A stretch of DNA of 64,000 nt from an uncultured Ignavibacteriota bacterium (GCA_947085285.1 CAMTVZ010000138.1:330-64329), one strand, 5' to 3'; numbered from the stretch's first letter, positions 49,905-63,979 are shown. Translations and numbers: made by a program. The notes: generated from the letters alone by a model not told the origin.

Positions 49905-51188
49905 TTACGGTTTAGTGGTAAAAGTAAATGTTTGTGAATATGTATAACCCAAATCGGAGGTCATCTCACGCATCCACTTAATGAACGTATTCGATGCAGC
50001 ATAATCAGTAGAAGGAATTGGTAAATACCGGTAAACCGACCAAGAATAAAGTGTATTTACGGGTAACCCCAATCCGTGTACTGAAAAATCGGGTATCTTT
50101 AAGTTTGAAGCTCTTGTGAAGATATAATATCTTGGGCTGTTAGCAACTGAAGAATACATTTGAACAATATTTACACCTTCGCCTGTACCTTGACTCCACG
50201 TAAATTCAGAATTATAATCTATATTGGAAGAACTATGAGGAGGTAACGCTAAACGTGGTGCGGACTCGAGCGTAACATTTACATTTGTTGACCCGGCGCT
50301 TATTCCTAATTTTGTGAAAGAAGTACCTATGGTGTTAGGTGTGCTGCTCATCGAAGCATCTGCCCGAATTCCGAATTGAACACCCGATATATTGGGAACA
50401 GCAAAATTAAAATTATTCGAAACGATTGGGGCATACTCGCTCCGCAAACCAATCTTGGCATTTTCGAATATAATAAAAAGGAAGCGTGAAGAAATCGAAT
50501 AACCTGCAGGAATATTTACAACACCAGTAATCGTTACATCGGGTGGGTCAACCACTTCAGTCGTTGAGAAATTTTGATTGCTATAACTTGCACCGTTTTG
50601 AACTGTAAGCGATTTTGAGGCATATCCGTCGAAGGTGGTTGGGTTACCCGTAATGTCAGTAGAAAACCTCAATAAGATTAATTTACCAATTAAAGTATTG
50701 GATGTATCAAACCAGCGGGCATTCAAAGTGTAAGCACCAGTTGTCGGGTCAGCTGTTGCTAAAGAATAGTTAGCGCCACTTACAAAGTAAATCCTGGTTG
50801 TTCTGCCCGATGCAGCAGGGGCTGTGCCAGTGATGGTTGCACTTTTCGATATAGACGGGAAAGAGAGATAGAGGAGTTTGGGGTCGGGACGATTCAAACC
50901 CTGATATATCATAGCAACTTTCCCCGTACTTACTACCACCGATATATCATACGGAACAGTTACGTTCGGTATTGAGAAAGTTCCGGCGGCGCTAGTAGTT
51001 ACAGCAGACTTACCGGGAATGATTACAGCAGCTCCGCTCACTGGTGATCCAAAGTAATCTTTTACAAAACCACTTACCGTGATCGGTCCAAGGGCTCCTT
51101 CTTCTTTTTCGCATCCAAAAAACATAAAACCAAGCAACAATGTTGCAATAAAAATAATAAATATATTTTTCATAATTATACTCCACAT
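49905..51188 (-). CDS. Secreted lipoprotein with carboxypeptidase-regulatory-like beta domains. Function unknown.
   Basis: A signal peptide with lipobox (LLLGFMFFGC) is present. The segment ITVSGFVKDYFGSPVSGAAVIIPG resembles a carboxypeptidase-regulatory-like beta domain. Confidence 0.6.
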   Translation of the reverse strand: MWSIIMKNIFIIFIATLLLGFMFFGCEKEEGALGPITVSGFVKDYFGSPVSGAAVIIPGKSAVTTSAAGTFSIPNVTVPYDISVVVSTGKVAMIYQGLNRPDPKLLYLSFPSISKSATITGTAPAASGRTTRIYFVSGANYSLATADPTTGAYTLNARWFDTSNTLIGKLILLRFSTDITGNPTTFDGYASKSLTVQNGASYSNQNFSTTEVVDPPDVTITGVVNIPAGYSISSRFLFIIFENAKIGLRSEYAPIVSNNFNFAVPNISGVQFGIRADASMSSTPNTIGTSFTKLGISAGSTNVNVTLESAPRLALPPHSSSNIDYNSEFTWSQGTGEGVNIVQMYSSVANSPRYYIFTRASNLKIPDFSVHGLGLPVNTLYSWSVYRYLPIPSTDYAASNTFIKWMREMTSDLGYTYSQTFTFTTKP

Positions 51189-51259
51189 AAAAATTTTTTA
51201 AATTGCTAATTAATTTCTGTTGGCATTTTATTGTGCCTTTCAAACTAAACCAGGATATT

Positions 51260-51829
51260 TTAATCTGGATAAACTATTGGAGGTGGTTGTTTCTTCTCCT
51301 CTTTTTTAGTGAGAAGAAGTACTGCAACCACAGCCCCAACCACTGCAACACCGGCACCTACTATAACCCAGGTGTTCTCATACCACGCAGTATCTTTTTT
51401 TTGTTCATCGGCAGCTTGTGGTTCTTCTGGCTGTTGACTTCGTATTTTTTCTACTAAAGCTACATAAGTCGGTGTGTCTTTATCAGGGTTAGGTGTATAG
51501 GTGGGAACTAACTCTAATAGCTTTCTTATTGCATTTTCAGCCTGTTCCTGATAGTCTTTTCCAAGATATACTTTTGCAAGCAATTCGTGAGCACGTGCTC
51601 GTTCTTGCTTGGTTATGCTGCTCTCTTTCAAACAATTGTTCAGAATTGTTATCGCATCATCAAATAGTCCCTCGTAAAACTTTTGCTCAGCTTGCTTTAT
51701 TTTCTCATCACAACTACTCTGCGTTTGTGCCATTATCGGAGTGAGAGTCGGTAGCACAAAAGCAAATATAATAACTCCGATTATTCCAGCAGTAACTTTT
51801 CGATACCTGTACAACAACTTACCAATCAT
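51260..51829 (-). CDS. TPR-like membrane protein.
   Basis: An N-terminal TM segment and a C-terminal TM segment (WVIVGAGVAVVGAVVAVLLL) flank TPR-like helices (ELLAKVYLGKDYQEQAENAIRKLLELVP). Confidence 0.55.
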   Translation of the reverse strand: MIGKLLYRYRKVTAGIIGVIIFAFVLPTLTPIMAQTQSSCDEKIKQAEQKFYEGLFDDAITILNNCLKESSITKQERARAHELLAKVYLGKDYQEQAENAIRKLLELVPTYTPNPDKDTPTYVALVEKIRSQQPEEPQAADEQKKDTAWYENTWVIVGAGVAVVGAVVAVLLLTKKEEKKQPPPIVYPD

Positions 51830-51860
51830 ACATCCTCCAATTTAATTTTAGTATTTTACT

Positions 51861-54374
51861 TTACTTTTTCTTTAGTGAAAATTTTAAGGGTTGATCTAAA
51901 TCTTTTTCAAAATTTATATTCTTTACACCATCAACGAGTGTGTAACCATCCAAGCGAACTTCAATTTTGTGCAAACCACTCCTCACTTTAATTTGAGCCG
52001 GTGTTTGTTTGCCCTCGGATTTATCGTCCACAAATATTTCTGCACGTAGCGGGCTTCCTGCATCATCGAAAGCAGTAATTGTTAAGGCACACATTTTATC
52101 AAAGTCGGCTAATATTTCGAGTGATTCTTCGGCTTTAATATTTATTGATTTTTCCCAAGTTCCGTATTTTGGGTGGGTAATTTTTATTTTACGTGTTCCG
52201 GAAGGAACATCTACATTAACCGGAACATCTGTATCTGATTTTTTTAACTGGTCGTCTACGTAAATCGAACCGTAAGGTTTGGCACGGAGTTTCAACTTAC
52301 CTATCATCGGTACTAAATTCTTACTGATAGTATATGTTTGCTTTTGTAATATGTTGAGAGTTGTGTCGAAATCCTTAAATCCATCCTTTTGCATTTTAAA
52401 TCTATGTCTGCCCGATGCAACCTTTTGGTTCATAAGCGGTGTAACACCAATCTCTTTTCCATCCATAATTATGGGAACACCCACTGGCTGCGAAGTTATA
52501 TTAATAAATCCGGCTGGAGATAATTTGACATCGATGGTTACCGGTTTATTGCCGATTATTCGAACAACCTGTTCGTAATCTTCAAAGTCGGGTCCAGCAA
52601 TGATTTTAATTTTGTGATAACCAGGCTGAATGAGACTATCTCTGTATGGGGTTTGCCCAATTTCCATTTCACCAATAAATACTTTAGCCCCCGGCGGCTC
52701 CGAATTGATTATCAATCTTTCAACCATAGCAGCTGCGCCAGTAGGTGCAAGATTATATCGGAGGTTTTTATTTTCTCCCTGCTTTAAATCAATCTCTTCT
52801 GTTTTTTCTCCATAAATTGGATGGATTACAAGAATGCGATGTTTACCTATTGAACGTTCGATGCTCGCAAGTTGAAAAGGTGGAATTGTATCTTTATCAA
52901 TAACCACGATAGCATCTGGAGGCATTACTGAAATAGACAATATCCCTGATGGTATTAAATTAAAATTTAATTGATAGTGCTGCCCATTGGTGGTAACGAT
53001 AGAAGTTTCGGCTGCGAAGAAATCTTTCTTGTGAACTTTTATTAATAATTTACCCACATCAACGGTGAATTCTTCTAAGGGGGTGTTTTTTCCAGTTGGT
53101 GCGTCGTTTACTGTAACTACGGCTCCGGGGGGTTGGGTGAAAATTGAAATTGTAGTTTTATCGGGTGAAAAAACAAAATACCACAGACCGATTAATAAGG
53201 CTGCAATTCCGAATACTGCAACCCTAATAAACTTTTTAGGGCTTGATAAGAGGGATTCGATTTTTTTACCAAACCAAAAAATAATTGCAGTTGCTAATCC
53301 GGTAAGCAACGAACTTGCAACTTTTTCTTTAGTCTGCTTGGACATTTGGATCCCAACTCCTCGTTTAGGGGCTGACCTTGCAACTGTTTCTTGCCCTGAT
53401 GCTTTTACTCTTATTGTTGTACGTTTTTTTAGAATTTGTGGAATAACAACATTCCATCGAACATCTTTAACATTCGATTTAAAAGTAAGGATTGAAATAA
53501 TTGATTTTAAAAAGTTCTCAATTGAAGAGGGACGTTTGTGAGGGTCAGTCATCAGAGCATTTTCGAGGACTGAGGAAATTCCTGACCACGGCTCGCCTTC
53601 GTTGCGGAAGGAGAGGTCGTATCCTTCTAATAATCTGAATGTTAATGCAGCAATCGAGTAAATATCGGATTGTTCGTTAACCGAATCGCCGCGTTTGTCC
53701 TCGGGCGAATAGTAGCCTTGCTTGATTTGTATGGCTTCGTCGGAAGGTAGATTTTTAAACGGCACTCCAATGTTGGCAAGAGTAACTAATAAATTTCCCT
53801 CATCGTCTAAACTTAGTATGATGTTGCCGGGGGCTAAATCTCTGATCCAAATTCTTTGACTATGAGCGGCTGAAACTGCCTTTGCAACTTGGTTAATTAT
53901 TTTGATTGTGTCGTTGGGCGAGAGGCGGTTTTGTTTATCGAGCACTTCGGCTAATGAAACACCTTGTATTAAATCGGTAACAATATACGGGCGGGGCTCA
54001 TCGTCAACATATGTGGTACCGAAACGAATATTTTGAAGAAATAGATGTCCGGGAAAACGTTCTGACAGGTATTTTAACATTTCAGCTTTAAACTGAAATT
54101 GTTGTGAAACGTTCTCGTTGTAAATTAGCTTTTTGTGTAATACACGGATTGCTACTAATTTATTTTTTTCGGTATCGAATGCCTCGTATGTAGTGTTAAA
54201 ATCGCCCCTGACGAAAAACGAACGCAATTCGTAATTTCCGAAGTATCGCCGAGTTAAAAGATTGAATTCGTCGGTAGAAAGTTTAACCGTAACTTTTCGA
54301 CGTTTATAAAAAATTATTCCTGCCACTAAAACGATTAAAATTCCGAATATTAATATAACTATCCAGATATCCAA
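51861..54374 (-). CDS. Transmembrane Ser/Thr-kinase-like protein with four or five C-terminal PEGA repeats. It is probably a pseudokinase.
   Basis: The N-terminal TM segment precedes a kinase fold in which the catalytic motifs are altered: VAIK reads VAIRVL, HRDLKPxN reads IRDLAPGN, DFG reads NIG. PEGA-like repeats include PPGAVVTVNDAPTG, PPGAKVFIGEMEIGQTPY and SQPVGVPIIMDGKEIGVTPL. Confidence 0.75.
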   Translation of the reverse strand: MDIWIVILIFGILIVLVAGIIFYKRRKVTVKLSTDEFNLLTRRYFGNYELRSFFVRGDFNTTYEAFDTEKNKLVAIRVLHKKLIYNENVSQQFQFKAEMLKYLSERFPGHLFLQNIRFGTTYVDDEPRPYIVTDLIQGVSLAEVLDKQNRLSPNDTIKIINQVAKAVSAAHSQRIWIRDLAPGNIILSLDDEGNLLVTLANIGVPFKNLPSDEAIQIKQGYYSPEDKRGDSVNEQSDIYSIAALTFRLLEGYDLSFRNEGEPWSGISSVLENALMTDPHKRPSSIENFLKSIISILTFKSNVKDVRWNVVIPQILKKRTTIRVKASGQETVARSAPKRGVGIQMSKQTKEKVASSLLTGLATAIIFWFGKKIESLLSSPKKFIRVAVFGIAALLIGLWYFVFSPDKTTISIFTQPPGAVVTVNDAPTGKNTPLEEFTVDVGKLLIKVHKKDFFAAETSIVTTNGQHYQLNFNLIPSGILSISVMPPDAIVVIDKDTIPPFQLASIERSIGKHRILVIHPIYGEKTEEIDLKQGENKNLRYNLAPTGAAAMVERLIINSEPPGAKVFIGEMEIGQTPYRDSLIQPGYHKIKIIAGPDFEDYEQVVRIIGNKPVTIDVKLSPAGFINITSQPVGVPIIMDGKEIGVTPLMNQKVASGRHRFKMQKDGFKDFDTTLNILQKQTYTISKNLVPMIGKLKLRAKPYGSIYVDDQLKKSDTDVPVNVDVPSGTRKIKITHPKYGTWEKSINIKAEESLEILADFDKMCALTITAFDDAGSPLRAEIFVDDKSEGKQTPAQIKVRSGLHKIEVRLDGYTLVDGVKNINFEKDLDQPLKFSLKKK

Positions 54375-54449: not shown

Positions 54450-54884
54450 TTAGTACGACTTAGGACTCGATGATAAAGGTTCGATACAGGGTAAATTATC
54501 AACGATCCCCTCGAGGCTATGACTTTGCTGTCTTGCAACACAGTTATCGTAGTCGAACCATTCTAACCGAGAGCGGATTTCAGGATCTTTACCAGCTTCA
54601 ATCGCTTCTTCTATATCTTCCTTCAATTCTCTTACAAGGCGGCGGAAGTCTTCAAAATGCCGTCTTTCGTGGGCTACCACTTCTGCGGCTTCAGTATTGT
54701 TAAGCTCCTCACTGATTAAAATTCGTGTCAAAAATGAAACTGTCAGGATCTCATCCTGCAAACTAGCTTCCCACGTATAATCGAAACAACCTCTATCTTC
54801 ATCAGGCATTATGCTTTGAATCTCGCTTATGCTCACCTTTTCGGGTGAGGGGGCTGTTGTGTGTCCGCTAAAATGTACTTGCAT
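54450..54884 (-). CDS. Hypothetical acidic protein with an HExxH motif, possibly zincin-like (DUF4157-like).
   Basis: The sequence reads VVAHERRHFEDF. It lies downstream of the contractile-system genes. The family call is an inference only. Confidence 0.4.
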   Translation of the reverse strand: MQVHFSGHTTAPSPEKVSISEIQSIMPDEDRGCFDYTWEASLQDEILTVSFLTRILISEELNNTEAAEVVAHERRHFEDFRRLVRELKEDIEEAIEAGKDPEIRSRLEWFDYDNCVARQQSHSLEGIVDNLPCIEPLSSSPKSY

Positions 54885-55082: not shown

Positions 55083-56681
55083 TTAACATGCCGGTGAGCG
55101 ACCATAGTGATCAGGATTGGTTATATTTGGAACAACTAAATTACCATTAGCATCCCGCAACTCCCGGCGTACTTCAATTCTCTTTCTTCGTCCTGTAAAA
55201 AGTTTTCTGTATCTTCGACCAGTGAAACTTTGGCGATAAATTACACTCCCATCACGCTGTCGCATCCGTTGTATTTCTCCAGCAGACCATGACCAATTAT
55301 CAAAATCAGTTCCACTAGCGTCTTCTTCATTTCCCCAACCTTCTCTATTCCAAGCCTCTTCAAGCTCTGGGAAAATGTTTCCGTCTTCATCAGGTCTTTC
55401 TTCATAATCAATATACCTATGTATAGAAAAGGTTTGTAAATTGCCGAGGGACCAATTCCATTCATCATAACGAGTTCGAAAAGTGTCATCAGAGTTTTCC
55501 CATCCTTCATCGTCCCAAGCATTCTGCAAATCTTGTAGAAAATTATGATTACGCTCTGGTCTATCGGCGTATCCTATATACATAGGAAGTGATTCAGTGT
55601 CATAACGCTTGCGATATTTTCTATCCCTTAACATTGTTCGCCATTGTTCATCTGTGGCAATATCTGGATATTTTTCTTGGAAACGTGCAATACAAGTTGC
55701 TTCATTCGGTTCAATTGTGCCGGGGACGTAGAAATAAAAGAATTCTATAAAATACTCTTGAGCAGTTACGTTCCCATTCCTACTCTCATATGAATACCAT
55801 TGAATATATTTAGGTGCATAAATAGTAGAACGACCCCCAAAAAGATTTCTTATTTCATCGAGTAATTCTTGGCTATTGCCGAGAGAGCATCCACGAATGA
55901 CTATAGTAGATTCATTATCGAGTTGTGTATCATCTGGTGCTACTAACCTTTCATCCTCAGCATTATCTCTAAGCATTTGAGGAGTTACATGGCGTGTTCT
56001 GGAATCTGCACGGAAGAGCTTAATTAACCACTCTGATTCATTACCATGACTTACAATATTCACTTGTCCCCATGTGCCGTATCCTAAACGAGCTGATTCA
56101 GTGTGAAGATATGTAAATATCTCTTCGACGCTTGAACGAGCAAATACCCCATCAGCGTTTATCCTCCAGTAATGGGAGGCGGCAGTAAAATAACCGCGAC
56201 TTCCGGTAATAAACGAAATAATGGGTCTATCTTGAACAAAATTACGCACAAAAGCGAGTGTCGCAGTACGAAAGCTTTTTCGACGCCCATCAATGCGTCC
56301 GTTTACTTCAAGTTGTATCTCAAAGATTCCCTGCTCTCGCTCATTACGAGCACCTGGAATTGGGAGTTCATAGACTGTATCTTCTGGTTCACCATCAATA
56401 TGTATACGTAATATTGGTGCACCTTCTGCGGCTCTTGCGCGACGTGAAATAGCACCAGTAAATTGCCCATCAACAATTTGACCTGTGAATTCTACAATAA
56501 AATCATCGCTACCTCCACCAGATTCGGTTACAGCTTCACTCCCTCTTCCCCAACGATCAACTTCTTTAAGAGTCAAAACAACATCACTTGCACTATCAGG
56601 TGAATCGAAAATAATTGAAAGAGTTTCCGATAAATTGTTGAGAACCCCGGGATAAAGTATAGCGTGAAATTCACTCATCAC
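55083..56681 (-). CDS. Hypothetical 532 aa protein with two tandem W/D/E-rich repeats and a basic C-terminal tail. It is a candidate injected cargo.
   Basis: The repeats are NAWDDEGWENSDDTFRTRYDEWNWSLGNLQ and EAWNREGWGNEEDASGTDFDNWSWSAGEIQ. Its composition is R/D/E/W-rich, unlike the K/I/N-rich neighbours. Its start overlaps the next gene. Confidence 0.5.
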   Translation of the reverse strand: MMSEFHAILYPGVLNNLSETLSIIFDSPDSASDVVLTLKEVDRWGRGSEAVTESGGGSDDFIVEFTGQIVDGQFTGAISRRARAAEGAPILRIHIDGEPEDTVYELPIPGARNEREQGIFEIQLEVNGRIDGRRKSFRTATLAFVRNFVQDRPIISFITGSRGYFTAASHYWRINADGVFARSSVEEIFTYLHTESARLGYGTWGQVNIVSHGNESEWLIKLFRADSRTRHVTPQMLRDNAEDERLVAPDDTQLDNESTIVIRGCSLGNSQELLDEIRNLFGGRSTIYAPKYIQWYSYESRNGNVTAQEYFIEFFYFYVPGTIEPNEATCIARFQEKYPDIATDEQWRTMLRDRKYRKRYDTESLPMYIGYADRPERNHNFLQDLQNAWDDEGWENSDDTFRTRYDEWNWSLGNLQTFSIHRYIDYEERPDEDGNIFPELEEAWNREGWGNEEDASGTDFDNWSWSAGEIQRMRQRDGSVIYRQSFTGRRYRKLFTGRRKRIEVRRELRDANGNLVVPNITNPDHYGRSPAC

Positions 56682-57123
56682 TTACATTCTCCCATCCTTT
56701 CTGATCAATGTCTCGAATCACTATTTCTTTGCCGCTTTCTTCATCGGTGCTAAGCTGGGTTACGTCTTCATAAGATTCTTCTTGAAATAGCAAATAGTCA
56801 GGTATTCTTATAAGACAACGTATAATATGGGTAGGCGTTGATGGGATAACAGTTGAAAAGCTTCCCTCAATATCAAGTCGATAGTCTCCTGGGGGAACAT
56901 TCTGACACTCGATTAAACCATCTCCATCAGTTCTTCCCTCCACAACACAATTGTTAGGGAGATGAATGCGATAAGATTTATTTGCAATGGGAACAGCCCC
57001 CGAATTACTCTTCAATAAAAGCGAAATATGACTTAACTTTGTCCTTAATATCAATGTATTATATGCATCGATATCATTAGTGCTGAGAGAAATATTTACT
57101 TCTGTATTCATACTAATACACAT
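56671..57123 (-). CDS. Hypothetical protein with a carboxypeptidase-regulatory-like (transthyretin-fold) domain.
   Basis: YRIHLPNNCVVEGRTDGDGLIECQNVPPGDYRLDIEG matches the domain. Confidence 0.45.
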   Translation of the reverse strand: MCISMNTEVNISLSTNDIDAYNTLILRTKLSHISLLLKSNSGAVPIANKSYRIHLPNNCVVEGRTDGDGLIECQNVPPGDYRLDIEGSFSTVIPSTPTHIIRCLIRIPDYLLFQEESYEDVTQLSTDEESGKEIVIRDIDQKGWENVSDE

Positions 57124-57132
57124 TTAAAATAA

Positions 57133-57795
57133 CTAACATCCATAAACTTCTTTTAATTTTGAACATGTTTTTTCATCCAATTGACCATTCGGCGTTAATC
57201 CGTTTTTTCTCTGAAATATCTTTATTGCTGCCTCTGTACGTGGACCTTTGATACCATCAATTGAACCACAGCGATATCCTAAATTTGTGAGTCTCGCTTG
57301 CACTCCTGTAATTTCTTCAATTGGATCAAGAGAGCTTATTTTTAATATCCATGTGTAATTATCACCTAACACATTTTGTTTATTCACGGTTAATTTACCT
57401 TCGGTGATATTCGAAGGAGCTTCGTTTTCAAGTAAGCCTTTATCATTTGTCGTACCATCGAAAGTTTCACTGCCTAACTGTAATTTGTACGACACATTTG
57501 CAAGTGGATTCCCATCTTCATCTTTAAGAATTATTCTCAAATATGTGTGTTGATTTTTAAATTTAATTTTTACTTTCTTCCCTGTATCGATGTTTTCGAC
57601 TTTTGATTTTTTATCTGGAATAACTACTTTGTCACCTGGGAAAATTATATTTGGATTTGGCCTCTTATTTTTTAAATCTTTATTATCTGGATGCTCATAA
57701 ATAGTTTTCCAATTTTTAAACTCATATTTTTTTGCAATACTCGCTAAACACTCCCCTTGTTTTACTATGTGTACTTTGCTCATGTATAGCTCCAA
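57133..57795 (-). CDS. LysM plus peptidoglycan-binding (PG_binding_1-like) protein, as found in phage-tail and contractile injection loci (gpX/Afp7-type).
   Basis: The N-terminal LysM reads HIVKQGECLASIAKKYEFKNWKTIYEHPDN...IFPGDKVVIP. The C-terminus reads ITGVQARLTNLGYRCGSIDGIKGPRTEAAIKIFQRKNGLTPNGQLD. Confidence 0.8.
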   Translation of the reverse strand: MELYMSKVHIVKQGECLASIAKKYEFKNWKTIYEHPDNKDLKNKRPNPNIIFPGDKVVIPDKKSKVENIDTGKKVKIKFKNQHTYLRIILKDEDGNPLANVSYKLQLGSETFDGTTNDKGLLENEAPSNITEGKLTVNKQNVLGDNYTWILKISSLDPIEEITGVQARLTNLGYRCGSIDGIKGPRTEAAIKIFQRKNGLTPNGQLDEKTCSKLKEVYGC

Positions 57796-58440
57796 TTATT
57801 TTATTTCCCATTCTCCGGAATCAATTTCCGGAAAAGTAATTTTACAAGTTCCAGGCTCAACACCTTCGAGTTTTATTTTACCTTTTGCATCAACAACACC
57901 TCTTTTTATAGACCCATCGGGCAATTCAATCTCGTACTTTTCACCTATCATCGGTTTTCCATCTTCATCTGTTACATCAACTTCAATCCAATCAGTTTTC
58001 TTTTTTTCTTCTTTCTTAGAAGATTTCTGTTCAGATTTTTTAGGAGGTGGAGATGAGGTTTTTTTCTCGCTTGATTTTATTTCCGGTTGAGGGGGAACAG
58101 CAAACGGCGGCATAATAACAGGTGGTGCACCCGGCATCACTTCACCTATCAAAACAGTTGGACATCCCACTACAATCGTCCCACCGTGTGCACAACTATC
58201 GCCCATTCGCGCAGCAGGTTTTCCACCAATCATCACACCAGTCGAACCTTTTACAATTACATCTGGCGGACCAACACACGTTGCCATATCGCCCATAACA
58301 GCGGCAGGCAAACCACCGATGAGTACATTAGGAACCCCAGGTCCAGTTATAGGACCACCAACATGTGGAATTGGTGGAACGCCCGGTGTTACCATCGGGC
58401 ATACGTGCATATCACTTATACGTGCGGCTGGTTGTCCCAT
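57796..58440 (-). CDS. PAAR-repeat spike-tip protein with a Pro/Lys-rich linker and a C-terminal domain of about 60 aa.
   Basis: Three PAAR-type repeats are present (GQPAARISD, GLPAAVMGD, GKPAARMGD) with the conserved Cys/His pattern. The C-terminal extension makes it 214 aa. Confidence 0.85.
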   Translation of the reverse strand: MGQPAARISDMHVCPMVTPGVPPIPHVGGPITGPGVPNVLIGGLPAAVMGDMATCVGPPDVIVKGSTGVMIGGKPAARMGDSCAHGGTIVVGCPTVLIGEVMPGAPPVIMPPFAVPPQPEIKSSEKKTSSPPPKKSEQKSSKKEEKKKTDWIEVDVTDEDGKPMIGEKYEIELPDGSIKRGVVDAKGKIKLEGVEPGTCKITFPEIDSGEWEIK

Positions 58441-58454
58441 ATTTAGATTTTAGA

Positions 58455-59315
58455 TTAATTTTTTTCACCAAAAAGTGTATCAACATATTCATCATATTCA
58501 CTCTCAACAATACCCAATCGGTCTTTACCTAAAGAAGCGCGTCCCAAAACAAACCCACTGGTTTCTAATAAAATTTGAATTCGTGCGTGAAAATAAAACG
58601 GCTCGGCAAATTCTACAAGCCGGTACAATTTTTTACTTACACCTGCTTCTTCAGCCCAACCTGCTTCTTGAAGTTTTTCGAGTGTTCTTACATTTATCGG
58701 TCCGATTGTGATGTTGTAAAACTTCGGACGCGACTTGAATTTTTTTCCAAGTACAAAATCTTTCCCGATTGTTGAATGATTATCCTTCTTACCTAATTTA
58801 GATTGAAGTTCGTCCGGGATTGGTCGCTCCTGATATTCTAAATCCTTAACAACGACGGGGACAGGAAGCTGAGTTGAACACTCTAACATCGTGCGAACAA
58901 GTGTAGCAATTCCATCGGTATGTCCCCAGGTTTCGTGTGCATGAACATAATTTTTTAAAAATACTTCAGCTTGATCGTCAGTGAGAGATGAGATGAAATC
59001 TATGTACCATTCGGGACATAACGCTGAGGTATATTGGCGAAGATAATCGGGAATATTTTCGTGCAACGTCTCGAAAGTCTGCGATTGCTCGTCTCTATCA
59101 GCAAACAGACGAGGAAAAGATTGCAAAAGCGCATAACGTGAATGCTCCATGCTGTTCAAGCCCGCATCTTGTATGAGCCGTTCAATTATACGCAAAGCCT
59201 TTACGGCATTTGAAGTTCCGACGGATTCATCCTTATCGAGTAGTCCGATTGGCAGAAGGTCTTCAAGCGAAGCAATCTGAAGTGGAATTTCTATTTTTTC
59301 TATCTCATCCATCAT
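58455..59315 (-). CDS. Putative baseplate protein (TssG/gpI/Afp12-like).
   Basis: It is translationally coupled (ATGA) downstream of the TssF/gpJ-like gene. Position and size fit. I have no motif proof. Confidence 0.35.
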   Translation of the reverse strand: MMDEIEKIEIPLQIASLEDLLPIGLLDKDESVGTSNAVKALRIIERLIQDAGLNSMEHSRYALLQSFPRLFADRDEQSQTFETLHENIPDYLRQYTSALCPEWYIDFISSLTDDQAEVFLKNYVHAHETWGHTDGIATLVRTMLECSTQLPVPVVVKDLEYQERPIPDELQSKLGKKDNHSTIGKDFVLGKKFKSRPKFYNITIGPINVRTLEKLQEAGWAEEAGVSKKLYRLVEFAEPFYFHARIQILLETSGFVLGRASLGKDRLGIVESEYDEYVDTLFGEKN

Positions 59316-60823
59316 TCTTCCGCAGAAACAAGTTTTATTCTAATAAAATTACCATTAACTGTTCTGCTCTTTAAATATAACCCAAGCAGTCTTTCAAAGT
59401 AGCTTTTATCGGGTTCAGATAAGAGTGCACCGTCGTTAACTGGGACTGAAATTTCGGTGAACGGAGTTAAAAATCCTTTAACACGCCCGACTTTTTCTTC
59501 GAATGCAATATTGTTTGATTTAACTAAATCGTTTCGATGGCTAAATGGAGGATAACCAACGATAGCAGCGCGTAAATCATCTTTAGTTAGCCAGCGATGG
59601 CGGCTTGCAAGAAGCGACCGGAAATAATTCCAGATGTGTTCTTTATTATTCAGTGCCTCAATCCGATGGGTTGGAGTTAATGACTGTGCACTTTTTACTC
59701 TTTCATCTATTCCTTGATACAGTCCGAAGCTTCTTCCCGATGCAATGTTGATACAATCATCTCCTATATCGTACTGGCAATAGTGTACTTTCACTGTGCC
59801 CGAAGGCGGTGGCGAAAAAGCAAAAACAACTTCGTCCTTATGAATATCGACTGATGTAGTATATTGAAACGGATAACCCGGATCCAGAACTGTAGCAGCA
59901 TTCAAATATTCAATCGGCGGGTCTGAACCGAGGTCTGTAACTGAAGTAATAATTGTTTCCTTTGACTTATGGGCAGTAATCGGAATGTTATACCGAAATT
60001 GATCAACGGGCAGGGCAAGTGCTTCCATCTCTACCATATTCCAGGCTAGGAATGAATTGAGGACAAGCTTCTTTTCCAAATCTTGTGCGAACTCACCGAG
60101 TCCCGGAAAAGGAATCCATATCAAATCATCTTTTGATTTGCTTGATGAAGCCGCGATGAAGATATCGAAAGGAATTTTTATGAAGCGGGAATCATAAGGA
60201 GTAAGAAAGAAATCATCGACGATGTTGTAGTTGCCCGGATATTTAGTTCTAATAACTGACTTTTTATTATTCTCGAGAACTTTAAAACCTGCAGCTTGCG
60301 TAATGCGACAGCGAAGTCGTTCCACTAACAACGGATCAACATCGCCTGTGAATATACTTATTTCACCGTTTTCTATCTCTTGAAGATTAGAAGTGAAAAT
60401 GTTAAAGCCAAGCATCAAGTCGTCGCCATAGCTGTCAACCCGAACATCGTTCGTATTGGCAGGAACAATCCAGGTCGGATACTGAGGAGCGAATAAAACT
60501 TTTGTTCCTTCTTTATCTTGAACATTAAAATAATGAGGTTGCTCCAACCACACAGGCTGTGCGGTTTTAACTTCACGTAAAGTAGATTGCAGAACAACAT
60601 AAGCCGGACCCGGAAACATCTGTCCAAACAAATGACGGCGAAGCACTTCAAACAATCCGTCGGAAACCTGATCGCTACGCTGTGCATAGGTTGATAAAAG
60701 GAGTTGATCCTGTACTTCCCCCTGATACGCTTCAAGAGTTTGTAAGATTGTAGTGAGTATAGGATCTTTTATATCGCCTTTATACTGACTAATAAAACGA
60801 GATTTAAAATCAGTAAACGTCAT
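59312..60823 (-). CDS. Putative baseplate protein (TssF/baseplate-J/gp6-like).
   Basis: A 503 aa protein between the gp25-like gene and the TssG-like gene. This is the conserved order gp25-gp6-gp7 (TssE-F-G). Confidence 0.4.
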   Translation of the reverse strand: MTFTDFKSRFISQYKGDIKDPILTTILQTLEAYQGEVQDQLLLSTYAQRSDQVSDGLFEVLRRHLFGQMFPGPAYVVLQSTLREVKTAQPVWLEQPHYFNVQDKEGTKVLFAPQYPTWIVPANTNDVRVDSYGDDLMLGFNIFTSNLQEIENGEISIFTGDVDPLLVERLRCRITQAAGFKVLENNKKSVIRTKYPGNYNIVDDFFLTPYDSRFIKIPFDIFIAASSSKSKDDLIWIPFPGLGEFAQDLEKKLVLNSFLAWNMVEMEALALPVDQFRYNIPITAHKSKETIITSVTDLGSDPPIEYLNAATVLDPGYPFQYTTSVDIHKDEVVFAFSPPPSGTVKVHYCQYDIGDDCINIASGRSFGLYQGIDERVKSAQSLTPTHRIEALNNKEHIWNYFRSLLASRHRWLTKDDLRAAIVGYPPFSHRNDLVKSNNIAFEEKVGRVKGFLTPFTEISVPVNDGALLSEPDKSYFERLLGLYLKSRTVNGNFIRIKLVSAEE

Positions 60824-61286
60824 GTGTTTCCTCGATAATATTCCAAGGACCTATTGTTCCTGCTTTCAGTCCTTTTTCGCTTCTTGATATTTTAAATTTG
60901 TAAACATATTCTTTATTCTCGGTTCGGAATTTAATTCCATTTTCTTCCCGCTCATCGCCAATCAAGTTCACATCATAGATTTCTGCAATATCTCCAAACC
61001 AGTTATTAACTTCGTTTTTAATAATTTGTTCGAGCGACCTGCGTTTGTCTTCTTCCATAATATCGCAGAATCGGGCGCTCATTCCCATATTGTAGAATTG
61101 AACCCACATAGCACGGATACCGGGAGATGGTAATTTGAGATATTCGCCAGCACCTGATAAAACAAATAATCTAAGTCGCGAGCCGACAATATTCTCTTCA
61201 GTACTTGCCCGTTGGAAAGTACCAATCGGCGATAATGTTAATGGAATATGTAAAACTGCCATGTTAATTAATTTGTACCATTGCAC
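60810..61286 (-). CDS. gp25/TssE-like baseplate wedge protein.
   Basis: TEENIVGSRLRLFVLSGAGEYLKLPSPGIRAMW fits the GPW_gp25 signature (eeNI..lL.T..GER...P.fG). It is 158 aa and directly follows VgrG. Confidence 0.55.
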   Translation of the reverse strand: MQWYKLINMAVLHIPLTLSPIGTFQRASTEENIVGSRLRLFVLSGAGEYLKLPSPGIRAMWVQFYNMGMSARFCDIMEEDKRRSLEQIIKNEVNNWFGDIAEIYDVNLIGDEREENGIKFRTENKEYVYKFKISRSEKGLKAGTIGPWNIIEETHDVY

Positions 61287-63021
61287 CTTTGATTACGTTT
61301 GTAGCTGCTGCCGACGATTCGACTTGAGTACCTTCTACCTTTACAGACATTGAAGATTTAAGTTCTGCTGAAGATGAGCCAGCAAGTGTAAGTTTATTGC
61401 CTGCTGTTGCTTCAATATCTTGTGCATTGACTTCAGTTTTGGAAGTTGCAGAAATTTCGATTTTGTCAGCTTTCATTTCAATTTTATCATCGGCATTTAT
61501 TTTTATCGTTTTTGCATGAACTTCCACTGTGCCGTCGCTCGATTCGATGAAGATTTTTGGACCTTTGTGTTCCATCCGTATAAGGTTCTCGCCGTTCGGC
61601 ATGGTGATCAAGATTTGCTCAGAACCTTTTTTTTCAATAACTCGAATTTCCGAGCCGGAAGATGTTTTTGCTATCAGCACTTCTTCAGTACCATTATCTG
61701 TTTTACAATCGGGTTTGTTTTCGCTGTGGTAGAGTGAGCCGATGACTACAGGAAGCGATGTGTTGCCGTGTTCGCATCCCACCAAAACCTGATCGTATAT
61801 GCGTGGAGTAAAGTGCGAGCCGTGGTCCGAACCGGCAAAAGGTGTTAACACACGAGCCCAAGCATGTGCACTCCCCTCTGTATCCCATAGATAACGAATT
61901 TGTACTCTGCCAATATTTGCTGGGTCTTTATTATCAATTACTTCAGCGGGTTGTAAAAGCCCCATATACTCGCGTTCGTCGGTGGCTAATTTGCGCATCA
62001 CAGAATCTTTGACCGCACCTTTGAATGAGGCGTTATAAACATTACCTTTGAATTCGGCTTCTAATTCCACCACCACAAATTTATCTTTCAAGATTGGATG
62101 TTCAGGAGCTTCGATCACACGACCTATCGTAACCATCGGATGATTTGTAGTCCCTGTTACATTTATATGCAAGCCATTATAAAATGCTTGTTGATGCTTC
62201 ACAAATTTTTCAAACTCACTTTTTTCAGTAATTGGTTCTTTGTAAATTTCGGTTGGCTCTTTGTGTAATTCATTCGATTTTTTGAAAATTTTTGAACCGA
62301 ACGGATGATTTGGGGCAGCATAGCTACCAGAGTTCACTACTAAGTCGGACGATTCAGAGTGTTTCTGATAATCATACGGAACTCCGTGGAACCTTGTATC
62401 GCCTAAAAAACAATTCAACCGAACATTAGAAATATTTTCCAACCCTAACTTTACTTCCGTTGTTCCACTCAATTTGGGTTCATATCGGAATGTTTCGCCG
62501 TCGTGGTAAAAAACACAGCCGTCGTAACGTGCAAGCCGCTTTAAGAATTCATAATCAGTTTCGTCGTACTGATGTAAAAATCGAAACTTTACCCCGTCAG
62601 ATGGTCCAGTTAATGAATTTGCAAATGATTTATTTTTGACGATTGTATTCACCACATCGAAGGCAGACATATTGACAAAGGATTTATGTTTTTCGACGAA
62701 GTTAAGAGAATGATCTTCCGACATCGCTTGAATGATAAGATTACCTGTCTCGAGATGAAGGTTGTGTATGATGCCGATGTATTTTTTGGAGATGCTGTTA
62801 TCCAATTGATCTAATACGGTGAGTTCTAATTTTTCGCCGAGCCATAAGGATACTGCTTTATCAAAAACAGAATTACACTCGGCTTCATCGAATCCGAGGG
62901 CAAGTCGTATTTTACAATGCGAAAAAAGTGATTGCCACATGTTGGCGCTAACGAAACGCAAACCGTGTGGCTTTCCGTTTATTGTAGCATTTACAATTAT
63001 ATTAGTTACTTTAGAAGCCAT
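61264..63021 (-). CDS. vgrG: VgrG-like spike protein (phage gpD/gp27 fused to a gp5 OB-fold), followed by a C-terminal beta-helix-like repeat.
   Basis: QYDETDYEFLKRLARYDGCVFYHDGE is the VgrG/gpD hallmark. AEVIDNKDPANIGRVQIRYLWDTEGSAHAWARVLTPFAGSDHGSHFTPRIYDQVLVGCEHGNTSLPVVIGSLY is the gp5 OB-fold. Confidence 0.9.
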   Translation of the reverse strand: MASKVTNIIVNATINGKPHGLRFVSANMWQSLFSHCKIRLALGFDEAECNSVFDKAVSLWLGEKLELTVLDQLDNSISKKYIGIIHNLHLETGNLIIQAMSEDHSLNFVEKHKSFVNMSAFDVVNTIVKNKSFANSLTGPSDGVKFRFLHQYDETDYEFLKRLARYDGCVFYHDGETFRYEPKLSGTTEVKLGLENISNVRLNCFLGDTRFHGVPYDYQKHSESSDLVVNSGSYAAPNHPFGSKIFKKSNELHKEPTEIYKEPITEKSEFEKFVKHQQAFYNGLHINVTGTTNHPMVTIGRVIEAPEHPILKDKFVVVELEAEFKGNVYNASFKGAVKDSVMRKLATDEREYMGLLQPAEVIDNKDPANIGRVQIRYLWDTEGSAHAWARVLTPFAGSDHGSHFTPRIYDQVLVGCEHGNTSLPVVIGSLYHSENKPDCKTDNGTEEVLIAKTSSGSEIRVIEKKGSEQILITMPNGENLIRMEHKGPKIFIESSDGTVEVHAKTIKINADDKIEMKADKIEISATSKTEVNAQDIEATAGNKLTLAGSSSAELKSSMSVKVEGTQVESSAAATNVIKGAMVQIN

Positions 63022-63319: not shown

Positions 63320-63979
63320 TTACTTACTGCCTTCTTTCCAATGCTCAGAATCGGTAGAAACCAGATACATGTTCAATTGGCGAATCGCATTCTTGTATTT
63401 CACATTTATACGAATATCGATAGCCTGATTGTTCACGGAGCCGTCAGGATTGGTAACTACATCAACTCCTTCAACCTTTCCATATTCTAACATCTTAGAA
63501 GGACCGCCGGTATTGTGCATAAGGAATTTCTGAATTGCCGACTGAATCTGGTCACGACTTGACTGCTCGTTTGGAACGAATGTGCGTCCGTTCAGATAAT
63601 GCAGAACAACTTTTGCAATGTACTCATCGCATCGTTTTACGGTGTACTGATCCATTCCTTCATCTCCCTGACCGCTCGCTAAGTATAAAGTATCAACGCC
63701 CCAGAACACAAGACCTTCATAGAAAGCTACGGGGATAAGAGCTTTGTTGAACTTCATCTGTTGACCGCCACGAATATTCCACTTCATTTCTAATGGGGAT
63801 CCATCGGGAGTTGGTATTTTTATTTCGTGCGGTTTATTTGCCTGAGCGATATGGATACCTTCCTTTATATCACCTTTGTATATTTTCCCAGCAAGAATTC
63901 CGGCGGGGTTAATGTACAGGTCGCCAAGTTCCTTTTCGAAGCGATTTGCACGACGAATTCTGAGTGGATTAGCAACCAC
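63320..63979 (-). CDS. Partial gene immediately upstream of vgrG. It is possibly a tube-initiator or sheath-family component. Its 5' end lies beyond the window.
   Basis: The frame stays open to the window edge. The C-terminus reads GVDVVTNPDGSVNNQAIDIRINVKYKNAIRQLNMYL. The call rests on position only. Confidence 0.3.
   Translation of the reverse strand: MVANPLRIRRANRFEKELGDLYINPAGILAGKIYKGDIKEGIHIAQANKPHEIKIPTPDGSPLEMKWNIRGGQQMKFNKALIPVAFYEGLVFWGVDTLYLASGQGDEGMDQYTVKRCDEYIAKVVLHYLNGRTFVPNEQSSRDQIQSAIQKFLMHNTGGPSKMLEYGKVEGVDVVTNPDGSVNNQAIDIRINVKYKNAIRQLNMYLVSTDSEHWKEGSK

Follow-up and report, generated by a model that had tools for sequence, protein, structure and literature searches.

Introduction

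Among the closest described systems, the transthyretin-like (TTR) domain of VgrG1, a spike protein of the T6SS (type VI secretion system) of enteroaggregative Escherichia coli (EAEC), is borne on a flexible linker and engages Tle1 at the N-terminal strand of the latter through fold complementation (PMC10715212), and the TTR-like domains that VgrG4b and VgrG5 carry set the specificity for PldA and PldB, at 25% identity against 69% for the spike core (PMC6684961). A TTR domain is also found on the PAAR protein VCA0284 (PAAR-2) of Vibrio cholerae, which lies beside TseH and is proposed to be an adaptor (PMC4453574). Here, we describe a gene of this design at 57796..58440 of a 64,000-nucleotide stretch of DNA (hereafter the window) from an uncultured Ignavibacteriota bacterium (GCA_947085285.1 CAMTVZ010000138.1:330-64329). 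Its product, a protein of 214 amino acids (aa) encoded on the minus strand, as are all the window features reported below, joins a PAAR cone, a tether predicted to be disordered and a C-terminal module that is very probably a TTR domain of the type carried by T6SS spikes. On balance, and by analogy with the systems above, we favor the reading that this protein forms a spike tip with a tethered cargo-docking (adaptor) domain.

Like the VgrG1 TTR of EAEC (PDB 6sjl/6sk0; PMC10715212, PMC10433429), the module is short and ends at the C-terminus. Unlike it, it is carried by PAAR, which implies one copy per spike at the tip instead of three on the VgrG trimer; it is moreover devoid of a DUF2345 region, its TTR identity to the EAEC domain is 21%, and its putative cargo is unrelated to Tle1. 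The TTR-like domains of Pseudomonas aeruginosa VgrG4b, VgrG5, VgrG2a, and VgrG2b (PMC6684961, PMC7376260; PDB 6h56) likewise diverge faster than the core, but are longer (regions of ~120 aa) and sit on VgrG, VgrG2b being further endowed with a metallopeptidase. With VCA0284, the present protein shares the PAAR-then-TTR order, a role as adaptor that has been proposed for both, and a place just upstream of an effector-type gene, here a candidate one; it differs in belonging to a Bacteroidota-type T6SS, in its long low-complexity tether, and in a recurrence of TTR modules downstream that is not reported for VCA0284. Finally, Wang et al. 2023 described LysM and PG_binding_1 domains that are either stand-alone or fused to toxin N-termini, found that VgrG–effector binding requires a stand-alone LysM protein, which bridges VgrG and the effector encoded downstream, and reported PG_binding_1 as limited to gamma-proteobacteria (PMC10673891), a set of observations that bears on the genes lying downstream of the one studied here.

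A PAAR protein with a tethered C-terminal module

The open reading frame (ORF) coincides exactly with 57796-58440, with its ATG at 58440 and its stop codon at 57796-57798, the plus-strand frame of the same interval being riddled with stops. A homolog search across 5.8 billion proteins gave 6,370 matches, and most of the 120 that were listed covered 95-100% of the query at 45-88% identity, with lengths of 205-240 aa. Since more than 100 cluster representatives share the full-length architecture and an identical copy of the gene, within the same gene order, is found on an independent assembly contig, this ORF is not due to chance.

The initial annotation, which was made from the sequence alone, had divided the protein into a PAAR core at about residues 1-100, a Pro/Lys-rich linker and a compact C-terminal domain of about 60 aa, and this division was borne out in each of its parts. 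The PAAR cone (residues 1-100; 58141..58440) matches the Pfam PAAR_motif (PF05488) over residues 25-90 with a score of 83.6 bits, the cut-off being 27 (E 1.1e-23), comprises three PAAR-type repeats (QPAAR, LPAAV, and KPAAR), and displays a putative metal site made of H12, C14, H26, C55, and H85, which are invariant in 45/45 aligned sequences. The closest solved PAAR sequences by phmmer are 9rce_c (E 1.8e-40) and 8gra_J (E 5.6e-23), and Foldseek aligned the PAAR part of the full-length model to 4jiw_D and 4jiv_D with target-normalized TM scores of 0.81 and 0.71. The cone is followed by a tether rich in Pro, Lys, Ser, and Glu (residues 101-148; 57997..58140), whose 48 residues include 11 each of Pro and Lys, 7 Ser, and 5 Glu and contain, at residues ~103-148, the linker string quoted in the initial annotation, PGAPPVIMPPFAVPPQPEIKSSEKKTSSPPPKKSEQKSSKKEEKKK. 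The last part is the TTR-like (or prealbumin-like) module itself (residues 149-214; 57799..57996; string TDWIEVDV...GEWEIK), for which five beta strands are predicted.

AlphaFold2, run on the alignment of 45 sequences, modeled the whole protein with a predicted local distance difference test (pLDDT) score of 85, which distributes sharply along the chain: ~95 in the PAAR cone, below 60 at residues 110-148, below 50 at residues 123-145, and 89-96 at residues 150-214, the module reaching 90.7 when modeled alone. In the 45-sequence alignment, the mean pairwise identity is 0.74 for PAAR (97-101 aa), 0.15 for the linker (43-77 aa), and 0.40 for the C-terminal module (58-62 aa), and this identity and length of the module are kept across Bacteroidota and Gemmatimonadota. 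In this alignment, the consensus of the module reads W..L.D.DG.P..GE.Y...LPDG...G.TD..G....GI.PG.CKI.FP.L...W. The tether is thus, as judged from the model and the alignment, disordered and hypervariable in both sequence and length among homologs. As the extension is neither absent nor unconserved among the 45 aligned homologs, nor disordered throughout in the AlphaFold2 model, the observation from which this work departed stands. Among the closely related PAAR ORFs of the fetched loci, 64/91 have no extension and 27/91 are extended, ~13 of these 27 with a TTR module, hence our description of the PAAR-TTR protein as an "evolved" PAAR.

Identity and distribution of the C-terminal module

To identify the module, a profile was built from 30 module sequences and compared with all PDB sequences. 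The best match was the TTR domain of VgrG1 (6sjl_A, residues 781-833; E 3.3e-5), followed by the C-terminal fragment of VgrG2b (6h56_A; E 4.5e-5), with invasin, Cna-B, and SdrD ranking below; the 222-aa PAAR protein 8gra was absent from these matches. A Foldseek search with the predicted structure pointed to the same families, with E-values that are non-significant. The module thus presents the beta-sandwich fold of prealbumin/transthyretin-like domains and sits at residues 149-214 of 214, that is to say at the very C-terminus of a spike component, after a flexible linker. On the basis of the profile matches to VgrG C-terminal domains and of these fold families, we consider it very probable that the extension is a TTR module like those that T6SS spikes bear. 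The initial annotation, which gave the domain no name, had also raised the ideas of cargo docking and of target binding, the former of which gains plausibility from these nearest matches being spike TTR domains, docking itself being here suggested by analogy.

In Pfam, the single sequence only approaches the CarboxypepD_reg (PF13620; E 0.0039, 17.9 bits vs 32.3, positions 2-54 of 82) and SpaA prealbumin-like (PF17802; E 0.0069, 17.0 bits vs 23.1, positions 4-55 of 91) families, as it covers approximately the first two-thirds of these models before the protein ends. Its tandem-copy relatives exceed the thresholds of both families, which places the module in this superfamily and outside the curated Pfam families. 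Neither Pfam nor NCBIfam holds a model of its own for it, and PHROGs yielded only a weak match to phrog_5348 (E 0.0026), a family annotated as of unknown function.

Many evolved PAAR proteins bear C-terminal toxins, and an extension to which neither Pfam nor NCBIfam assigns a family could be read in this way, which would make the protein a "specialised effector" PAAR. We hold this to be very improbable: the extension consists of 60 all-beta residues among which no catalytic-type residue is conserved, it is homologous to adaptor TTR domains, and the next gene encodes a conserved LysM/peptidoglycan-binding protein, with no small immunity-like gene directly after. The view of the initial annotation that the extension does not resemble a known toxin is therefore retained, no toxin family having been matched in Pfam or NCBIfam. 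The structural likeness to Cna-B also called for consideration of a split Cna-B/SpyCatcher-like domain that would capture a strand covalently by an isopeptide bond. This candidate was rejected and appears scarcely credible, because the corresponding triad is not conserved: no Lys, Asp/Asn, or Glu column reaches at least 90% in the 30 modules, the only columns that do so being P, Y, G, G, G, G, C, F, and P. Together with its shorter length, the lack of this triad sets the module apart from Cna-B, SpaA, and CarboxypepD_reg domains.

The same profile retrieved 13,199 representative clusters at E <= 1e-3 from a library of 1.84 billion proteins, often with the module in tandem, and three of the top matches, which are tandem-copy proteins, begin with a DNA_circ_N baseplate-hub-like domain. 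This distribution is the background for a reading in which the module would be a passive decoration or spacer, or else an assembly aid contacting the baseplate or VgrG, with no specificity for cargo: beta-sandwich repeats of this kind are common "beads" in many proteins, three of their top representatives are fused to hub-like domains, and most of the related PAAR ORFs counted above manage without any extension. Such a role is nonetheless quite unlikely in our view, as the module keeps its length and its conservation right next to a linker that drifts; its presence moreover tracks specific downstream cassettes, and the predicted template modeling score of the full-length model (pTM 0.48) suggests no fixed packing on the PAAR cone.

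Some proteins carry the module apart from a PAAR domain. Small stand-alone proteins of 159-220 aa (P0173, P0180, P0187, P0192, P0193, P0207, P0213, P0216, P0227, and P0235) consist of two to three copies of the exact PAAR-type TTR module and low-complexity linkers; they have no model in Pfam or NCBIfam, P0187 matches phrog_5348 (E 2.8e-8), and the contigs found for them, of 1.3-4.4 kb, are too short to provide context. In a Zixibacteria locus (L090:6245-7096), right after VgrG, a 283-aa protein without PAAR domain harbors one TTR module, 47% identical to residues 135-211 of the window PAAR protein, amid long Gly/Ser/Lys low-complexity sequence, and is, to go by this composition, a free-standing counterpart of tether plus TTR.

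A cassette of candidate partners downstream of the gene

Within the 64-kb window, the module profile matched only three ORFs: that of the PAAR protein and the next two downstream. The first of these two (57133..57795) is an ORF of 220 aa, probably 216 aa from an ATG at 57783, in which a TTR-like module lies between a LysM domain (E 2.7e-4) and a PG_binding_1 domain (E 5.3e-14), hence LysM-TTR-PGB for peptidoglycan binding. This module was recovered at residues 82-137 (57385..57552) by hmmsearch with the PAAR-TTR profile (E 3e-6) and at residues 83-142 by hhalign (93.8%). The second, which we call p150 (56671..57123), is a 150-aa protein built around a TTR-like module, with conserved residues ~31-129, related to the PAAR C-terminus by BLASTP (E 5e-7) and by hhalign (95.9%). 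It is followed by p532 (55083..56681), an orphan protein of 532 aa. LysM-TTR-PGB, p150, and p532 form a conserved downstream cassette beside PAAR-TTR and are candidate partners of it.

Homologs of LysM-TTR-PGB directly follow PAAR-TTR in L082/83, L084, and L085/86, and one stands within ~0.5 kb downstream of it in L005, where a second copy is found further on; in L001, a 931-aa ORF begins with the homologous 215 residues. Not every PAAR-TTR gene has this partner, as the partner profile did not find the gene in the PAAR-TTR loci L002, L003, L004, L012, and L015. The family is small (64 clusters, nearly all of 207-231 aa), and in L090, in L091, and on the P0285 contig its members also stand before effector-like genes. 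In the Zixibacteria T6SS locus (L090), the gene occurs twice between VgrG and DUF4280; in an orphan locus, it comes after a 290-aa protein that ends in a TTR module and before genes for Het-C (889 aa) and DUF7738 proteins; and on another contig, it follows PAAR and a DcrB-like chaperone and stands ahead of a 975-aa protein that matches Amidase_2 faintly. No obvious signal peptide was seen by eye in the protein of the window. From this gene order, LysM-TTR-PGB appears as a candidate "leader" gene of diverse effector-like genes, whose product could be an effector-recruitment or a co-secreted protein; a review of T6SS accessory genes from 2026 does not list it (PMC13584744). As with the LysM/PG_binding_1 "effector discrimination" proteins of Wang et al. 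2023, it is encoded stand-alone before effector-like genes and, once, as an N-terminal fusion to a large ORF. In contrast with these, the upstream spike part is PAAR-TTR or another TTR-bearing protein, the LysM protein itself includes a TTR-like module, and the proteins come from Bacteroidota and Zixibacteria.

These neighbors give substance to the main alternative to the adaptor reading, namely that the module is a target-recognition or envelope-binding domain, which would bind a carbohydrate, the peptidoglycan or a surface ligand of the prey after firing, or anchor the tip, and would load no cargo. Its closest folds include modules of adhesins and modules that bind carbohydrates or other ligands (Cna-B, invasin, SdrD B, CBM41, and macroglobulin domains), the neighbors that share the module also bear LysM, PG_binding_1, or OmpA peptidoglycan-binding domains, and adhesin-sized proteins contain the module in long tandem arrays. 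Set against nearest profile matches that are the TTR domains of VgrG spikes, we regard this alternative as unlikely, and we keep the adaptor reading in what follows.

The second half of the cassette recurs elsewhere. A p150-like module is always found immediately before p532 homologs, in three loci of distinct make-up. In L090, LysM-TTR-PGB is followed by a protein combining OmpA/PGB with a p150-like module, then by a p532 homolog (35% identity, E 3e-105). In L092, the gene of a PAAR-like protein that carries two TTR modules is followed by a p150-like gene and then by a p532-like gene, beside ClpV, TssB, and TssC. In L093:7057-9383 (GCA_024256265.1), a protein combining PG_binding_1 with a p150-like module directly precedes a p532-like gene, on a contig that displays archaeal markers (fibrillarin/Nop5 genes) and no T6SS genes within the 17-kb stretch examined, so that this cargo pair may reflect a horizontal transfer or a contaminant of the bin. 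The p532 family numbers only seven clusters, and p532 has no match in Pfam, NCBIfam, PHROGs, or PDB sequences. Its alignment reveals an invariant His-Gly pair ("WG.VN.V.HG", H212/G213) and an invariant Arg-Gly-Cys triplet ("V.RGC..G", R263/G264/C265), each after a hydrophobic stretch, as well as a conserved motif, EFHAxLTPG, at the extreme N-terminus. On these motifs, p532 may be a hydrolase. With homologs in the T6SS/PAAR-TTR contexts of L090 and L092, it is probably the best candidate for a cargo or effector of this spike tip. The order of a His then a Cys, each preceded by a hydrophobic strand, recalls clan-CD cysteine peptidases.

In the close relative L082, homologs of p150 and p532 were not found; there, genes of 772 and 528 aa fill the slot, which is bounded by the conserved LysM gene on one side and by the p144 and kinase genes, likewise conserved, on the other. 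The slot is therefore variable, as expected for cargo. The protein p144 (54450..54884; 144 aa) harbors an HExxH string (AHERRH) and a weak match to DUF6782, "putative metallopeptidase" (E 0.065). Its homolog in L082, 68% identical, comes after a different gene, that of 528 aa, which indicates that p144 belongs to the flank of the variable slot and does not form a pair with p532.

In more distant loci, genes directly downstream of PAAR-TTR (L012:1935-3842, L015:8636-10558, and L003:8673-8978) encode proteins that share a strand-like N-terminal motif, RQLVVxxRxKPA, a candidate for the strand on which the TTR module would dock. Near these genes lie genes of ~190 aa that resemble DUF4123 genes by their size.

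The surrounding T6SS locus

Upstream of the PAAR gene, a same-strand run comprises a TssC fragment, VgrG, a 158-aa gene, a 503-aa gene, and TssG, so that TssC, VgrG, and TssG lie on the PAAR strand within 6 kb; related contigs add ClpV and TssD. The TssC sheath subunit is represented by its C-terminal part, the gene running off the window (63320..63979; PF17541, E 1.1e-12). The VgrG spike (61264..63021) has 585 aa and no C-terminal extension (Phage_base_V, E 1.6e-19; Phage_GPD, E 4.2e-10; TIGR03361, E 1.1e-28). The 158-aa (60810..61286) and 503-aa (59312..60823) genes have no family match and occupy the positions of TssE/gp25 and of TssF by gene order only, the former by positional analogy to the GPW_gp25 gene of L085, the latter in the same place as the large gene that this locus has between GPW_gp25 and TssG. 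The TssG baseplate subunit (58455..59315; PF06996, E 7.7e-9; TIGR03347, E 7.1e-10) is separated from the PAAR gene by a gap of 14 nucleotides, where L082:8866-9948 adds a 360-aa coiled-coil-like gene. The name "Bacteroidota bacterium" is attached to proteins that fall in the 90%-identity cluster of this VgrG or share 82% identity with the LysM/PGB protein, and we infer for this system the subtype label of Bacteroidota-type T6SS.

Beyond the cargo region, the interval 49905-54374 encodes, in an order that is kept in L082, a Ser/Thr kinase of 837 aa whose C-terminus bears PEGA-type repeats, a TPR-like membrane protein of 189 aa, and a CarboxypepD_reg-like lipoprotein of 427 aa; this trio may be a signaling module linked to the T6SS.

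Discussion

Taken as a whole, the initial observation was correct and its reading sound, and the PAAR-TTR protein is an instance of an already known design, here in a Bacteroidota-type T6SS. On this basis, the cone, of the Zn-type, would cap the VgrG trimer, encoded ~3 kb upstream, and the disordered tether of ~48 residues would let the 60-residue TTR beta-sandwich swing beside the spike. The module would then bind cargo through an edge strand or by fold complementation, as Tle1 does with the VgrG1 TTR, the cargo being the products of the downstream cassette, docked either directly or via LysM-TTR-PGB and/or p150. That we find this adaptor role somewhat probable follows from the analogy with the VgrG1–Tle1 pair, in which a flexible linker and fold complementation are likewise at play, from the contrast between PAAR and TTR identities, which parallels the divergence pattern of VgrG4b and VgrG5, and from the recurrent gene order around PAAR-TTR.

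Several observations weigh against it. Pfam and NCBIfam revealed no recognizable toxin domain in p532, and no recognizable immunity gene accompanies it. The distant PAAR-TTR loci differ downstream, where they encode transmembrane proteins, the proteins with the RQLVV..R.KPA N-terminus, or DUF4123-sized genes, which makes the set of partners lineage-specific. Furthermore, the module profile also matches giant adhesin-like repeat proteins: to judge by these matches, the module is a generic building block, not specific to the T6SS, and its fold alone therefore says a limited amount on its function.

It is also conceivable, if doubtful, that the TTR-like module acts as a shared "tag" by which PAAR-TTR, LysM-TTR-PG_binding, p150, and p532 build a multi-protein cargo through TTR–TTR or strand-swap contacts. 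If this were true, it would represent an undescribed loading route for a new family of peptidoglycan-directed effectors (p532), and one that is mobile across Bacteroidota and Zixibacteria, and even onto the archaeal-looking contig without T6SS genes in its 17-kb stretch.

Already catalogued and put forward as adaptors, PAAR-TTR proteins are, as far as the literature we found goes, little studied outside Proteobacteria. In this regard, the present locus offers a compact and testable Bacteroidota-type example, which brings together a tip, a tether, a 60-residue module for which docking is proposed by analogy, and three candidate partners. The side result of a recurrent, unannotated cargo cassette marked by TTR modules, in which LysM-TTR-PGB and p150-like/p532-like genes would be associated in Bacteroidota, in Zixibacteria, and on the archaeal-looking contig, is possibly more useful than the PAAR-TTR protein itself, as it could serve to mine new effectors in uncultured phyla, and it extends the idea of effector discrimination by LysM/PG_binding proteins beyond gamma-proteobacteria.
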